Shown in pieces: positions 3,898 to 48,636 of a DNA stretch of 64,000 bases. The notes beneath the pieces were generated by a model, which saw only the letters and a program-made list of their open reading frames with translations, was not told where the DNA came from and ran no database searches. The stretch's first letter is position 1. Each line of letters begins with the position of its first letter. A program made the position numbers and the translations under genes. The stretch is from a virus, in IMG/VR virus record IMGVR_UViG_3300046798_000124, positions 1 through 64,000 of that record; one strand, given 5' to 3'.

Positions 3898-4494
3898 TTA
3901 CGGCAAGGCGGGCACGACATCGCGGATCTTCGCCACGCGCGCCGGTGAGACCGAGGTATCGGGCAGCAGCGTCGCTTCGATCGGGACCATCGCCTTCGCG
4001 TCAACGGTGAAGTCGACGGCCATAGATCCCGACATCTGGCAGCGATAGCCGATGATCCGGAAGGCCTGGAGGTCCTGGGTCTGGATGTCGAAGCCAATGC
4101 TCACGAACACGTCGGTGATCAGCGAGCCGATGGCGAGGTCGTTGTGACCCTTCACCCCGGAGATCGGCGCCGTGGTCGTCAGGGTCCCCTGGCCCGAGGC
4201 CAGCTGGATCTTGGCCGGCGACATCTCGGCCAGGTTGAAGCTCATCGTGGCTGACCGAGCGGTCGCAGGCCGCATGACCGGGTCGAGCGACTGGTCCACC
4301 GAGACGTCGGCACGGGTGATGTCGGTGCCGAAGTGCAACCCGCCGTCGGTGTACCCCTGAAGGACCCATGGGGTCAGCCAGGGGTCGCCCCAGATCAGGG
4401 TATCGAGCGGCAGATCGTTGGTGGTGGCGTAGGCGGCGGTGTAGGCCCAGAAGTTTCTGGTTTGCAGAACTTGAAGGGCATCTGGTTCGGCCAT
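3898..4494 (-). CDS. major tail tube protein, copy 2
   Basis: W...GYTDGGL...VDQSLDPV...FNLAE tube motifs; GGAGG RBS. Confidence 0.8.
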   Translation of the reverse strand: MAEPDALQVLQTRNFWAYTAAYATTNDLPLDTLIWGDPWLTPWVLQGYTDGGLHFGTDITRADVSVDQSLDPVMRPATARSATMSFNLAEMSPAKIQLASGQGTLTTTAPISGVKGHNDLAIGSLITDVFVSIGFDIQTQDLQAFRIIGYRCQMSGSMAVDFTVDAKAMVPIEATLLPDTSVSPARVAKIRDVVPALP

Positions 4495-42834: not shown

Positions 42835-43494
42835 TCAGGGAGCGTGAAACGGCGGGGGAGCGCGCATGATGTAGACGATCGTCCCGGCCACCTTGACCTG
42901 GTCGGGGCGTAGCGTGCTCCCATCCGATAAGCCGTAACTGTGGTGTCCGCCACGGATGAACCGCCAGGCCGTCAACGTCGCCGCGCCGTGGAGGAGCAGG
43001 ACCAACTGCTCGCTCGTGGCGCGCGCGTCGGGGTCGAACAGGACTTGATCGCCGGGGAGGACGTGCGGCGTCATCCCGCCACCGTCGACGGTGGCCACGT
43101 AGACGCGAGCGCGTCCATCAAGCTGGGAGGCCGCGACGGTCAGGGTCCGTCCGGTCGGCACCAGCACGCCATCCGGGCCGAGCGTGACCTCCGGCGCGAG
43201 TGTCACACCTTCGATACCTAGCAGCGCCGTATCCCGCAGGCCCGGCATCCGGGTCTGCTTCTGGACACTGCCGATCAGGGTTGATTCCGGCACCTCCAGG
43301 GCCGTGCAGATGTCGCGAATGGTCGAGATACGTGGGGACTGGATCCGACCCCGCGTCAGGAGTGAGAGCTGGGAGACCGACACACCGGAGCGTGCCGACA
43401 GCCGGTGCAGTGATACCCCCCTTCTGCGCAGGAGCGTCCGCAGGCGCTGACCTATCGTCGTCTCGTCGTTCGGGGTGTGCGCGAGTGCCTGCAC
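42835..43494 (-). CDS. CI-like repressor (XRE HTH + degenerate S24 domain)
   Basis: IGQRLRTL..LSARSGVSVSQLSLL; GGGMTPHVLPGDQVLFDP. Confidence 0.8.
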   Translation of the reverse strand: MQALAHTPNDETTIGQRLRTLLRRRGVSLHRLSARSGVSVSQLSLLTRGRIQSPRISTIRDICTALEVPESTLIGSVQKQTRMPGLRDTALLGIEGVTLAPEVTLGPDGVLVPTGRTLTVAASQLDGRARVYVATVDGGGMTPHVLPGDQVLFDPDARATSEQLVLLLHGAATLTAWRFIRGGHHSYGLSDGSTLRPDQVKVAGTIVYIMRAPPPFHAP

Positions 43495-44001: not shown

Positions 44002-44127
44002 CCCCCAGCACACCAACAGCCCGGCCTGGTGGCCGGGCTGTTGGTTGAGGAGATCCGAGCGTGGTGCCGCCGCGCTCCCTGTCATCGTACCGCACCCGTC
44101 GTAGTCCGGGAAGTTGAGGAGGTCGTG

Positions 44128-44364
44128 ATGCAGAGCCAGCGCAACGGTGCCCAGAGGCCAGTCTCGCTCGACACCTTCAAGCTGATGCGCGGCGAACAGC
44201 TGCACCACCGCGAGCGCCAGGACGCCCACGACGACGGGGTGATGCAGGGGTTCTTCCTCGGCCTGTGTGCAGCGGTGCTCGGCTGGTTCGTGATCTCGGG
44301 CCATCTGGTGCGCCTGCTCTACGCCCTCGTCAGATCCATGCTGGCGCTGGACGGTGGAGCGTGA
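44128..44364 (+). CDS. small membrane protein
   Basis: GGAGG RBS; hydrophobic C-terminal half. Confidence 0.55.
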   Translation: MQSQRNGAQRPVSLDTFKLMRGEQLHHRERQDAHDDGVMQGFFLGLCAAVLGWFVISGHLVRLLYALVRSMLALDGGA

Positions 44365-45413
44365 GTGCGCCTGCCCATCGACCGGAGAAAACAAGCCCGG
44401 CGACCCGGCCGAAACTGGAGCATTTCGGTGCGATCATCAACGAGTTCATCTCGATCTGGAAAACGCCGGGCAAGATGATCTCAGCGCCATGGGCACACCC
44501 GCGCGTTCTCCACTTCGACTTGCACGCGGCCACCGGTCATGGCGTTGAGGGGCGGGACGGCAGTGCGTTGATCGCACTCCGCAACATGCTCGCCCGAGAT
44601 CTCTCTTTCGAGTCGTTTCTCTTCGAGCAGAAGCGGTACAAGTGCGACGCGCTCCGAGAGAACATCGTGGCGATGCTTCAAGAGCATCGCGAGGCGGTGG
44701 TGGAGGGTCCGTTTCGCTCGTATCTCGGCCACACCGCGAGACGCACACCCTGTATCGAAGTGTGCCCGGTCTGTCACCCGTCGGATCTCGCTGCCTGGAT
44801 CGACGACCACGCCCACATCATCATCGGCGACCACAATGAGACCATCGATGGTGTCCTGGCCGATCTCCGTGGACGACTGAGGAAGCGCGCCTACGGCCTG
44901 GTCGTGGCCGACCCGTACGGGATCAGTGATCTCGGTCAGGAGCCGCTCATCAAACTATCGCGGGAGCCACTTCTCCAGCGCGTCGATCAACTCGTCAACG
45001 TGGCGACGACAGCCGCGAAGCGCGGCGGCTACCAGCCGGCCTACGACCTCCTCGCGCCCATCCAGAAGACACGCCGCCTCGTGCGCGAGACGTTGCCAGG
45101 CGGCGTCGATCACGGCTGGAACTGGACGATGTTTCTGTTCTCAAACTGGCGTGCCGTGCCGGCGTTCATCCGCCTCGGATTCCACGACACGCAATCACCG
45201 GAGGGGAAGCAGCTGCTGGACCGCTTCGGCCTCACCGAGCGCCAGCGCAGAGGTGTGACCTCAGCCCCTTTCGCGATGACGCGGGGTACCGGAGCTACGC
45301 CGAGTACCTCGCCCACCCCCGGTTTCGGGCCGTGCGAGCCGATGTCTTCGCCCGCTGCGGCGGCCTCTGTGAACGGTTCGACCGCACCCGAGCCTCAGAG
45401 GTCCATCACGTGA
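44361..45413 (+). CDS. tcmP: three-Cys-motif partner protein (TcmP-like, SAM-dependent methyltransferase fold)
   Basis: FDLHAATG...GSALIAL, IGDHN, VADPYG; adjacent to DUF5131. Confidence 0.7.
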   Translation: MSAPAHRPEKTSPATRPKLEHFGAIINEFISIWKTPGKMISAPWAHPRVLHFDLHAATGHGVEGRDGSALIALRNMLARDLSFESFLFEQKRYKCDALRENIVAMLQEHREAVVEGPFRSYLGHTARRTPCIEVCPVCHPSDLAAWIDDHAHIIIGDHNETIDGVLADLRGRLRKRAYGLVVADPYGISDLGQEPLIKLSREPLLQRVDQLVNVATTAAKRGGYQPAYDLLAPIQKTRRLVRETLPGGVDHGWNWTMFLFSNWRAVPAFIRLGFHDTQSPEGKQLLDRFGLTERQRRGVTSAPFAMTRGTGATPSTSPTPGFGPCEPMSSPAAAASVNGSTAPEPQRSIT

Positions 45414-45505
45414 GATACCCGCCGTGGGGCACATTCGACACCGAAGAGAACCTGCTTGCAGTCTGCCGCCGTTGCCACTGCGAGATCCATGGGAAGGACG
45501 CATGA
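45266..45505 (+). CDS. HNH nuclease domain in -1 frame, joined to TcmP by probable programmed frameshift
   Basis: YAEYL..PRF...R..VFARCGGLC...EVHH..Y.......ENL.AVCRRCH..IH; no full-length start; stop overlaps ATG 45502. Confidence 0.75.
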   Translation, partial: PFRDDAGYRSYAEYLAHPRFRAVRADVFARCGGLCERFDRTRASEVHHVRYPPWGTFDTEENLLAVCRRCHCEIHGKDA

Positions 45506-46926
45506 CGGTACAGCTCGCGGTGCTCAACAGCCAGGTCATGACGGTCGAGGATCAACTTGCTGAGAGCGAGGCGATCATGGAGCGGGGGCTCTCGAGTTTC
45601 CTTGAAGTCGGCCGTGAGTTGATGAAGATCAGGGCTCACGAACTCTACAAGACGAGCGGCTACCGGAGTTTCTCCGACTACCTGATGGCCCGCTGGCCCG
45701 ACTTAGGGCGGGCCTACGCTGATCGTGTCATTGCTGCAACAAGGGTCGTAGACAACCTCGCGCCAATTGGCGGCACATTACCCGTAAGCGAGTCGCAAGT
45801 CCGACCACTGACGGTTCTTGAAGCACCTGAGCAGCTTGAAGCGTGGCAGCGTGTTTTGGAGAAGACCGGCAAGAAACCCGTCACCGCCAAGCTGGTCGAG
45901 CAGACGGTCGAGGAGTTGAAAGCCGAGATCGCCGCCCGCATCGAACCCGAAGAGGACGAAGCGGAAGAAGAGACACCGGACCTCGATCACCCGCCGATCT
46001 ACCACGACGATGAAGAGGACGATGAAGAGGACGAGGAGGGTGTCCCTGAGCCTGATGCCCCGGACGCCGAGCCCGAACCCGAAGAGACGCCGTTGCTGGT
46101 CCTCCAGGTTGTTGCCGAGCAGGCTCCAACTATTCGTCCCTACTACGACCTTCCCGCCTGGGAGGCGCTCTCGGCCGATGAGCAGCAGTGGGTGATTGCA
46201 CACGCCGCCGACAAGAGCGGCGCAGGATTCAATCGGACGAACGATAACGTCGAGTGGGCGCTCTGGACCTGGAATCCCGTCACCGGCTGCAATCATGGGT
46301 GCGACTACTGCTACGCCCGCGACATCGCCAATCGCTTCTATGAGGATCTGCCGGAGGGTGAGCGATTCGCGCCGGTCTTCCGCCCGAATCGACTCCACGC
46401 GCCCCGTCGGATGAAGGTGCCGGCCGCCGCCGCGCGGAATGTCGGCGAGAAGAACGTCTTTACGGGGTCGATGACCGACCTCTTCGGCAAGTGGGTGCCG
46501 CAGGACTGGATCGACGCCGTCTTTCATGAGGTCGTCCGTGCCGAGGAGTGGAACTTCCTCTTCCTGACGAAGTTCCCGCAGCGCCTTGCCGAACAGCAGT
46601 GGCCCGAGAACGCCTGGGTGGGCACGACCGTCGACCGTCAGGCGCGGGTCGCCACCGCCGAGCGGGCGTTCCGAGGTGTCACAGCCGGCATCAAGTGGCT
46701 CTCGGTCGAGCCGATGCTCGAGCGGCTGACCTTCTCGTCGCTGGAGATGTTCGACTGGGTCGTGATCGGCGGCGCCTCCGAGAGCAGCCAGACGCCGGCG
46801 TCGCAGCCACCGACGGAATGGGTCGAGCACCTCGTCCGTCAGGCCCGCGCCGCCGGCTGCCAGGTCTATTTCAAGACCAACCTCGGCTATCGGCCTCGCG
46901 AGTACCCACAGGGAGTGACACGATGA
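45502..46926 (+). CDS. DUF5131 (Gp37/Gp68) radical-SAM-like protein with extra N-terminal helical domain
   Basis: TWNPVTGCNHGCDYCYA, SMTDLF, FLTK, SVEPML, DWVVIGG. Confidence 0.9.
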   Translation: MTVQLAVLNSQVMTVEDQLAESEAIMERGLSSFLEVGRELMKIRAHELYKTSGYRSFSDYLMARWPDLGRAYADRVIAATRVVDNLAPIGGTLPVSESQVRPLTVLEAPEQLEAWQRVLEKTGKKPVTAKLVEQTVEELKAEIAARIEPEEDEAEEETPDLDHPPIYHDDEEDDEEDEEGVPEPDAPDAEPEPEETPLLVLQVVAEQAPTIRPYYDLPAWEALSADEQQWVIAHAADKSGAGFNRTNDNVEWALWTWNPVTGCNHGCDYCYARDIANRFYEDLPEGERFAPVFRPNRLHAPRRMKVPAAAARNVGEKNVFTGSMTDLFGKWVPQDWIDAVFHEVVRAEEWNFLFLTKFPQRLAEQQWPENAWVGTTVDRQARVATAERAFRGVTAGIKWLSVEPMLERLTFSSLEMFDWVVIGGASESSQTPASQPPTEWVEHLVRQARAAGCQVYFKTNLGYRPREYPQGVTR

Positions 46927-47174
46927 ACAGCACGGCGCAGCTTCCCGAGATCGTTGGCATATTCTGGGCGTGTCGTGGCTGCGGCGACGCAGTCTATCCG
47001 CAACGCTGCGAGCACGGAGACAGCGTGCCACTCAACCGGGATGGGACCTGTCACTGGGAGACGTGCCCGGCAGCCGGCCCGGATGGACCACCGGGGAGCG
47101 TGCTGCTCGTGCGACGCTCCGATGGCACATTCCGTCCGTACGCAGCACTCTCGCAGGAGCGGACTCCATCGTGA
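46923..47174 (+). CDS. small Zn-binding protein
   Basis: CRGCG...VPLN.DG..HWETCP. Confidence 0.55.
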   Translation: MNSTAQLPEIVGIFWACRGCGDAVYPQRCEHGDSVPLNRDGTCHWETCPAAGPDGPPGSVLLVRRSDGTFRPYAALSQERTPS

Positions 47175-47841: not shown

Positions 47842-48636
47842 ATGATCACCGAAGAGCGCGCCAACGAGATCCTCGACGACACTGAGGACGAGGACGAGAC
47901 CCTGGTGGTCACGCCACTCTCGACCTACGAGAAGCTGGCGCTGCCGTTCGACCTGGCCGACCACGCCCGCGTCAACAAGGGGGGCATGGATCAGACGTTC
48001 GCGCCGTGGACGGTGTACGTCGAGCGGCTGAACAGCGTCCTCGGCGTCGAGAACTGGTCGTACCGGATCCCACGCGAGGGGTTCACCGAGACCGAGTGCT
48101 GGGTGCTCGCGGAGATCACCGCCTTCATCGACGGCGCCGAGATCGTGCGCCAGCAGTACGGCTCGGAGCCGATCGTCAAGGGTCGGGACGCCAAGCCGAC
48201 CACCGACCTGTTGAAGTCAACGGCGTCGGACGCGCTCAAGAAAGCCGCGTCTCTGCTCGGCGTCGGCCTCTACCTCTCGATCAAGGAGGAGCGCCTCGCC
48301 ATCGAGCAGGCGATGCGTGAGGCGGTCATGGAGGCTGCCGGGCAGATGCGCGGCGCTGGAGGCCCCCAGAGGGCGCCACAGGGTCAGGATCGGCCTGCCC
48401 CCGCCCCGACCCCGATGCGGCCACCACAGGCCGCTCAGCCGGCGCCGGCGCCGCTCGCAACTGGCGAGCGCGCCAGCCTGGAGAACAAGTACGAGGCGCT
48501 TCGCGAACAGGCTCGCCACACGGGCTTCCAGGCATCCTGGGCCACCGGTGGTCCCGAGCAGTTCAACGACATCCAACTGCCCAAGTACATCAACCTGCTG
48601 GAGCAGCACGTCGCTCGTCAGCGAGTGTCCGCGTGA
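47842..48636 (+). CDS. Rad52/Sak-family single-strand annealing protein
   Basis: ERLNSVLGVENWS...KSTASDALKKAASLLGVGLYL. Confidence 0.85.
   Translation: MITEERANEILDDTEDEDETLVVTPLSTYEKLALPFDLADHARVNKGGMDQTFAPWTVYVERLNSVLGVENWSYRIPREGFTETECWVLAEITAFIDGAEIVRQQYGSEPIVKGRDAKPTTDLLKSTASDALKKAASLLGVGLYLSIKEERLAIEQAMREAVMEAAGQMRGAGGPQRAPQGQDRPAPAPTPMRPPQAAQPAPAPLATGERASLENKYEALREQARHTGFQASWATGGPEQFNDIQLPKYINLLEQHVARQRVSA

Follow-up and report, generated by a model that had tools for sequence, protein, structure and literature searches.

The stretch examined here is a DNA of 64,000 nucleotides (nt; hereafter the window), positions 1 to 64,000 of the IMG/VR virus record IMGVR_UViG_3300046798_000124, and forms part of a viral contig of 74,167 bp of soil origin. 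Within a densely packed plus-strand operon, whose neighbouring genes overlap by GTGA or ATGA at 44361, 45502 and 46923, a gene for a TcmP-like protein is followed by a small HNH nuclease segment lying in the −1 frame, and then by a gene for a DUF5131 protein. A sequence-only reading of the window had proposed that TcmP and HNH are joined by programmed −1 ribosomal frameshifting. The parts of the junction and its downstream partner are the following, with lengths in amino acids (aa) and SD standing for Shine-Dalgarno.

44361–45413, plus strand: TcmP-like gene (tcmP), zero frame, 350 aa; residues 1 to ~300 form the fold domain, residues 305–350 a low-complexity tail.
45249–45255, plus strand: SD-like AGAGGTG, 10 nt 5′ of the heptamer; possible stimulator.
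45266–45272, plus strand: slippery heptamer C CCT TTC in the phase of tcmP; proposed −1 site.
45281–45312, plus strand: GC-rich stem-loop of 12 bp with one bulge, 8 nt 3′ of the heptamer; candidate stimulator.
45269–45505, plus strand: −1-frame segment for an HNH nuclease (78 codons and the TGA stop), without its own start codon.
45502–46926, plus strand: gene for a 474-aa DUF5131 protein, its ATG overlapping the HNH stop.

Read in the −1 frame, 45266–45505 encodes ...PFRDDAGYRSYAEYLAHPRF...EVHH...CRRCHCEIHGKDA*. The segment matches Pfam PF01844 at 23.8 bits, above the gathering score of 21.4 (E 5e-5), and PHROG HNH families with E-values down to 2e-9, which bears out the earlier assignment of an HNH domain to this frame of tcmP. 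Homologues of the 79-aa −1 peptide are many, 71–101 aa long and 56–68% identical to it; most of them start with a Met no more than ~25 residues before a conserved Y..YAEYL.HPRF block, so that a small protein encoded on its own is the usual form of this family. The catalytic residues H47/H48, N62 and H71/H75 are conserved in the window, and of the two zinc-binding pairs the second (C67, C70) is intact while the first CxxC reads C35-E-R-F38 (CERF, not CERC). Phe38 is a one-base change from TGC at a position held by a nearly invariant zinc-ligand Cys among the 33 closest homologues, and an unusual Cys at residue 31 (Ala in the homologues; region 45359–45379) may be a relocated zinc ligand or a sign of decay. 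The Phe at a zinc-ligand position calls for caution on nuclease activity in this phage. The HNH frame is open from the stop at 44927–44929 and contains no ATG, GTG or TTG in 44930–45331; the first such codon, GTG 45332, sits 15 codons inside the conserved HNH domain. Reading the frame thus confirms that it holds no start save this internal GTG.

The product of tcmP scores 33.2–33.9 bits against TIGR04474, under the NCBI cut-off of 53, and 59 of 62 aligned homologues match the same model at E ≤1e-3 (best 1.4e-19); the window protein is thus a divergent branch of the TcmP family. An AlphaFold (AF2) model built with 62 homologues (predicted local distance difference test score, pLDDT, 86) has a class I S-adenosylmethionine (SAM)-methyltransferase fold closest to RlmJ, the 23S rRNA m6A2030 methyltransferase with a DUF519 fold, which is both its best structural match (Foldseek E 1e-5, TM ~0.44–0.48) and its top profile match in the PDB. 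Both proteins carry the Rossmann SAM-binding motif DLxAxxG and D-P-x-G/Y at the catalytic-loop position. They differ in that identity is ~12% and the TM score moderate, and DPPY of RlmJ is DP(Y/N)G in TcmP; methyl transfer by TcmP is putative. Model confidence (pLDDT) drops past residue ~295, and the zero frame continues after the slip site for 47 codons, to 45413, rich in P/S/T/A/G, in agreement with the low complexity first noticed there. Residues 305–350 are an unconserved tail that results from reading the HNH gene out of frame.

In tcmP phase the codons TCA GCC CCT TTC GCG place an X XXY YYZ heptamer, C CCT TTC, at 45266–45272, with Pro303 CCU in the P site and Phe304 UUC in the A site, so that codon phase upholds the slippery site first proposed. 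The heptamer stands at the end of TcmP homology, and the conserved HNH N-terminus starts 7 codons further on. Heptamers of the type H_HH.U_UU.Y rank with the most efficient for −1 shifting in Escherichia coli, C_CC.U_UU.C is named a high-level frameshifter and U_UU.C is the second-best −1 tetramer (Sharma et al. 2014, PMC4066793). The SD-like AGAGGTG and the stem-loop are likewise present at the spacings of ~10 nt upstream and 8 nt downstream described before. The hairpin has a ΔG of about −20 to −25 kcal/mol and belongs to the top 1.5% in stability among 40-nt segments within ±1.5 kb; no Rfam family matched in 45100–45520.

The junction in related loci

To place the junction in its family we assembled a set of loci from HNH-based scans, which yielded 43 IMG/VR loci and 13 loci from bacterial genomes (including Actinomadura, Streptomyces, Streptacidiphilus and Streptosporangium); a family-wide genome search added three and a TcmP-based scan two new ones. 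A TcmP scan of IMG/VR with alignment A1 gave no match, and a TcmP scan of JGI metagenomes gave two distant loci only (L002 and L003), which were left out of the comparison. About 55 related loci carrying this HNH were compared at the junction. Almost all share the gene order TcmP-like gene, HNH, and DUF5131 protein with an N-terminal extension, and they solve the TcmP–HNH junction in three ways. In the majority class HNH is a separate gene with its own ATG or GTG, usually 2–18 codons before the conserved Tyr (further upstream in L017 and L004) and usually overlapping the TcmP stop. Four loci have in-frame TcmP–HNH fusions: L009, L049/L060 (Actinomadura cremea), L056 and L065. In the remaining class, of seven, HNH lies start-less in the −1 frame: the window, L015, L021, L023, L048/L061 (Streptomyces sp. 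NPDC005322), L005 and L067.

Five of the seven start-less loci (the window, L015, L021, L023 and L048) carry C CCT TTC or C CCT TTT in phase at the junction, 21–48 nt before the conserved Tyr codon, and L005 has CTT TTC, an in-phase U_UU.C tetramer (T TTC), within a C6T4 run. By comparison, no in-phase X XXY YYZ occurs near the junction in any of the ~45 own-start or fused loci, and other in-phase heptamers were seen only 178–1071 nt from it. Many non-shifting TcmPs also end in ...PL(P)F, written in non-slippery codons (CTA CCG TTC TAG in L010; CTG CCC ATT in the fused L009), and Pro-Phe is therefore a C-terminal feature at the protein level. Since in these genomes CCT accounts for ~10% of Pro codons and C for ~42% of third positions, NNC CCT TTY is expected at ~4% of x-Pro-Phe sites; it is present in every canonical start-less lineage, against a chance of ~0.04 per lineage. 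On the TcmP tree the shifted, fused and separate forms interleave within one half of the family. L005 is the sister of the window there, and L021/L048 group as sister to loci with separate genes, their position nested among fusions. At least two origins of the heptamer form are needed on this tree, and L015 and L023, whose more divergent TcmP was not placed on it, add a third.

One start-less locus of this class, L067, and one outside it, L030, have junctions of their own. At L067:3043–3438 the −1 HNH begins exactly at the TcmP stop (CTG TTC GAC CTG TAG CGT ATC); neither X XXY YYZ nor Z ZZN is present there, and the nearest ATG lies 36 codons upstream, within tcmP. On the low-GC phage contig L030 (2792–3064) HNH lacks a start and lies in the +1 frame relative to TcmP, with the junction GAC AAA TTT CCT GTA; a +1 slip of tRNA-Phe from UUU to UUC into the HNH frame is possible there, as is a CTG or ATC start. 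Termination–reinitiation at the TcmP stop was considered for the −1 class and rejected: in L015, L021 and L048 the HNH domain follows the stop by 8 nt, but in the window the stop falls 127 nt inside the domain, and no start-like codon is near.

The same arrangement can be traced in listed proteins. A word-index search gave two TcmP relatives only. One of them, P0003 (65% identity, from another assembly), has the same zero-frame product, of 351 aa, and its tail aligns with that of the window. As a start codon (ATG, GTG or TTG) in the −1 frame needs a Cys or Trp in the zero frame, and the tail of P0003 has neither, no such start is possible in its −1 HNH frame. An exhaustive phmmer search returned 345 TcmP homologues, and in nearly all of the best 150 of these 345 the homology stops at query residues ~287–303, that is, at the heptamer. 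We deduced the −1-frame coding potential of the listed homologues from their residues and compared it with the HNH consensus. About 19 of the 150 listed representatives, mutually ≤50% identical, have tails that are ≥0.73 compatible with that consensus (median 0.37), and these tails align with one another. Pro-Phe stands just 5′ of the tail in 14 of the 19, always preceded by a residue with a codon able to end in C. Protein P0045 has the ...SPLFDL... ending of L005. In a separate case, the TcmP of P0056 ends ...NSPLPKGSPR before a tail that shadows HNH; its Pro-Lys could be written C CCA AAG, another classical slippery heptamer.

These comparisons bear on whether the HNH protein is made alone, from GTG 45332 (57 aa) or an unrecognised non-canonical start, with its overlap incidental to high GC and rare out-of-frame stops. 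The GTG is present, two database proteins of 52–53 aa (P0037 and P0038) begin near the same point and high GC does lengthen spurious open reading frames (ORFs); initiation at 45332 would, however, delete Y8, Y11, E13, Y14, L15 and P18, residues that vary little or not at all across 33 homologues, and no SD precedes it. Nor does a CTG, ATT, ATC or ATA occur in the 20 codons before the conserved Tyr of the window domain, and L021, L023 and L048, like P0003, lack ATG, GTG and TTG anywhere in the HNH domain. With the recurrent in-phase heptamer also left unexplained, we regard production from an internal start as quite unlikely.

We give a similarly small chance to the view that HNH is a decaying remnant, once free-standing, that has lost its start and is unexpressed, the heptamer being there by chance. 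The free-standing HNH with its own start in most relatives, the loss of one zinc-ligand Cys in the window and the start-less, motif-less L067 would all fit decay. Yet the 78-codon frame is intact and retains the invariant His and Asn along with other conserved residues, and the conserved, start-less open arrangement recurs in lineages of <50% identity, each time in the −1 frame and each time with this heptamer and its rare codon. The in-frame fusions, too, speak against a remnant.

A third possibility is that the frame changes at the level of the nucleic acid, through a 1-nt sequencing or assembly error hiding an in-frame fusion or through RNA polymerase slippage on the C4T3 run. The site consists of two short homopolymers in a row, the run in L005 is longer (C6T4) and in-frame fusions do exist in relatives. 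To check for an indel, we overlaid Logan contigs from other soil and rhizosphere runs on 44361–46000. Two of them, X4 record 17 (45080–45741) and X9 record 24 (45033–45627), span the heptamer without a single difference or gap, and a pair of X2 contigs meets there; the bridging assemblies are of low depth and possibly from one sampling campaign, yet they represent separate read sets. No variants were found in the overlaid contigs across 44361–46000. Because contigs of two other, independent runs bridge the site unchanged, an assembly indel there, which the earlier account had wished to see excluded by reads, is unlikely. The arrangement also recurs in many independent assemblies, an isolate genome among them, and runs of 3–4 bases are far shorter than those known for transcriptional slippage. 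A frame change in the nucleic acid is thus highly improbable.

Apart from the question of frame, the C-terminal ends of free-standing TcmPs deserve a remark. They often read Q-x-x-P-L-(P)-F or QLSLQIIF (GQQPLPF*, GQIPLRF* and GQLPLFK*, for example; L010 ~830–853, L012 ~4020–4044, L057 ~1700–1724 and L030 ~2840–2862). Presumably this motif resembles the bacterial β-sliding-clamp binding motif QL[SD]LF. The slip site of the shifting loci is written in its Pro-Phe codons.

The proposed slip and its weak points

Taken together, the same in-phase heptamer in at least three lineages, the natural fusions, the absence of any possible start in relatives and the identical independent read sets strongly support a programmed −1 frameshift on C CCU UUC that would join TcmP and HNH as one recoded gene, to which we assign a probability of roughly 0.8. 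The comparison of relatives thus lends strong support to the central proposal, a −1 slip that would give both TcmP and TcmP–HNH. In the putative mechanism most ribosomes would read the zero frame of tcmP and stop at 45413, releasing the 350-aa TcmP with its junk tail, while a fraction would slip one base back, the tRNA-Pro on CCU and the tRNA-Phe on UUC re-pairing with CCC and UUU at 45266–45272. The slipped ribosomes would continue in the −1 frame through HNH to the TGA at 45503–45505 and yield a 381-aa TcmP–HNH protein, TcmP residues 1–303 plus HNH, with the junction ...TSAPF-RDDAGYRSY...; our predicted junction (...GVTSAPF/RDDAGYR) agrees with that of the sequence-only reading. The stem-loop 8 nt downstream, and perhaps also the SD-like AGAGGTG 10 nt upstream, may raise the slip rate. 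The anatomy of the sequence, its recurrence in other read sets and its conservation are shown here; that ribosomes slip, and how often, we infer. Since in-frame TcmP–HNH fusions exist, the fused protein is a viable product. Most likely the small HNH is made only as a tail on the preceding TcmP protein.

Several points weigh against this interpretation. The shifted product is a prediction from the sequence, and the motif efficiencies come from E. coli, not actinobacteria. L067 is start-less without a recognisable slip motif, which may indicate another route to HNH expression in the family. The Phe at the zinc-ligand Cys could reflect relaxed constraint in this particular phage. The remaining points concern the stimulators. 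The window hairpin is not significant against dinucleotide shuffles of a 65-nt stretch (z −0.88). In L021, L048 and L023 a common 6-bp GCGGCG/CGCCGC stem with differing loops lies 7 nt 3′ of the heptamer, and it is weak, at about the 20th percentile; L015 and L005 show no convincing downstream structure. The heptamer and the following 27 nt are identical between L021 and L048 while the flanks diverge, an identity that dual coding alone could cause. Relatives have not kept the SD-like element as a signal; their upstream purine-rich runs encode a conserved (K/R)EKA peptide found in non-shifting loci too.

Stimulators are thus plausible in the window and for the family only putative. The dnaX-type combination of SD, heptamer and hairpin claimed at the outset holds for the window itself and not for the family, in which the SD-like run is a by-product of (K/R)EKA and a strong hairpin is found only here. 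Of the features that homologues had been expected to share, the heptamer at the junction was found in relatives and in-frame TcmP–HNH fusions exist, while the hairpin is not clearly conserved.

The DUF5131 protein and the operon

The protein encoded downstream has a DUF5131 domain (PF07505, 148.5 bits, aa 249–466) that is radical-SAM-like, with CNHGCDYC. Against PADLOC it scores 140 bits for PDC-M41B and 130 bits for PDC-M30B, and TcmP matches PDC-M30A weakly (19.7 bits, E 1e-4). Downstream of TcmP a DUF5131 gene is present in the window, as it is in nearly every related locus with a contig long enough to include it. The ~245-aa N-terminal extension (45502–46236) consists of a helical domain and an acidic linker (EEDEAEEE...DDEEDDEEDEE). 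Its first ~150 residues resemble DUF3102 and Plasmid_parti_N helical domains in language-model features and predicted structure only, which provides a lead; the N-terminal 143–245 aa had no sequence match in Pfam or the PDB.

The overlap of the HNH stop with the DUF5131 ATG, described earlier, is there as ATGA at 45502–45505. In nearly all loci of every junction class the start of the next gene either overlaps the HNH stop or directly adjoins it (ATGA, TGATG or TGAnATG), and the final HNH codons, HGK(E/D), double as the Shine-Dalgarno of the next gene, GGnAAGGA (45490–45505 in the window, with equivalents in ~45 loci). Coupling of HNH and DUF5131 is thus a real, family-wide trait and not one specific to frameshifting. 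The further suggestion that frameshifting ribosomes gate DUF5131 translation receives no specific support, as the stop/start overlap and the built-in SD are found whatever the junction type.

The operon extends to both sides of these three coding segments, and its neighbours are as follows.

42835–43494, minus strand: CI/LexA-like repressor (helix-turn-helix plus peptidase S24), 5′ of the operon and divergent.
44029–44364, plus strand: upstream ORF, 111 aa, no family match; its TGA overlaps the tcmP GTG (GTGA).
46923–47174, plus strand: small Cys-rich ORF, 83 aa, no family match; its ATG overlaps the TGA of the DUF5131 gene (ATGA).
47842–48636, plus strand: weak Rad52/22-like annealing protein, 3′ of the operon.

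The GTGA overlap places the upstream ORF in the same tightly coupled operon. The Cys-rich ORF, start/stop-coupled to the DUF5131 gene, is zinc-ribbon-like (CRGCGD...CEHGD...CHWETC) and a possible member of the module. From the divergent repressor and the downstream annealing protein it follows that the cassette lies in the early/recombination region of a temperate-type phage. Neither the whole region nor TcmP or HNH matched anything in 50,697 deposited phage genomes (blastn, tblastn).

Because HNH and TcmP have been fused repeatedly, by apparent frameshift or in frame, there is good evidence that the two would act together. The fusion would physically tie a nuclease to the methyltransferase-fold protein, which in turn would work with the DUF5131 radical-SAM-like enzyme, itself bearing an N-terminal helical, probably DNA-associated domain; all three proteins may act on DNA. 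That they form a module for base modification, with a nuclease dosed to tell self from non-self, as the sequence-only reading had it, is speculation. In the literature searched we found no work on the function of either TcmP or DUF5131, and no HNH fusion made by frameshifting is described there.

Known systems and meaning for the family

Proven families of −1 frameshifting in bacteria and phages are few, namely dnaX, insertion sequence (IS) elements, tail chaperones and a handful more. In dnaX, in orfAB of IS3/IS911 and in the phage tail-assembly chaperone G/GT, an upstream ORF is likewise extended by a start-less −1 ORF through an in-phase heptamer to give two products per mRNA, as is predicted here; the window also resembles them in having a hairpin, here a candidate stimulator, that starts 8 nt after the heptamer, and an SD-like run that lies 10 nt before it. 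It differs from these systems in its motif, C CCU UUY instead of the usual A AAA AAG or G GGA AAG, in a gene family new for recoding (methyltransferase-fold TcmP plus HNH) and in stimulators that are not conserved family-wide; the same junction also exists in relatives as separate genes and as plain fusions. C CCU UUU is the West Nile virus frameshift site: the NS1′ site of West Nile and the Japanese encephalitis serogroup belongs to the same heptamer class, but works with a eukaryotic ribosome and a pseudoknot stimulator, in genes and a biology unrelated to those of the window.

The TcmP/DUF5131 'three-Cys-motif' pair (TIGR04474 plus PF07505; PADLOC PDC-M30 and PDC-M41) similarly consists of a TcmP-like gene adjoining that of a CxxxCxxC DUF5131 protein. 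In the window, by contrast, an HNH segment is inserted between the two and tied to TcmP, the DUF5131 protein has its ~245-aa N-terminal extension, and the genes belong to the early/recombination operon of a temperate-type phage instead of standing in a bacterial defence island. The mechanism is of a known kind; what is new, as judged from the literature and databases searched, is that it occurs in the TcmP–HNH family, how far it has spread and that one junction has been solved in three ways.

The finding has consequences for annotation, since gene callers give TcmP a meaningless tail of 10–80 residues and miss or truncate HNH. A conserved, probable recoding site that is also present in a cultured Streptomyces genome, and that comes with natural controls in the form of separate genes and plain fusions, should be easy to test. 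The fusion is moreover a Rosetta-stone link that marks HNH as an integral partner of TcmP in the TcmP/DUF5131 pair, so far listed only as a candidate defence system, and it offers a handle on that pair via DNA cutting or binding. A wider reading, which we hold only tentatively and consider rather unlikely, is that the frameshift from TcmP into HNH is a recoding switch of ancient origin, invented anew several times in a phage/prophage cassette of wide distribution and fixing the ratio of free to nuclease-armed TcmP, with HNH as the DNA-engaging arm of a TcmP plus DUF5131 SAM/radical-SAM machine that chemically alters DNA. If it were true, frameshifting would be in use in about one in eight of the TcmP lineages in this branch, which would place the family among the larger unannotated recoding families in bacterial viruses.

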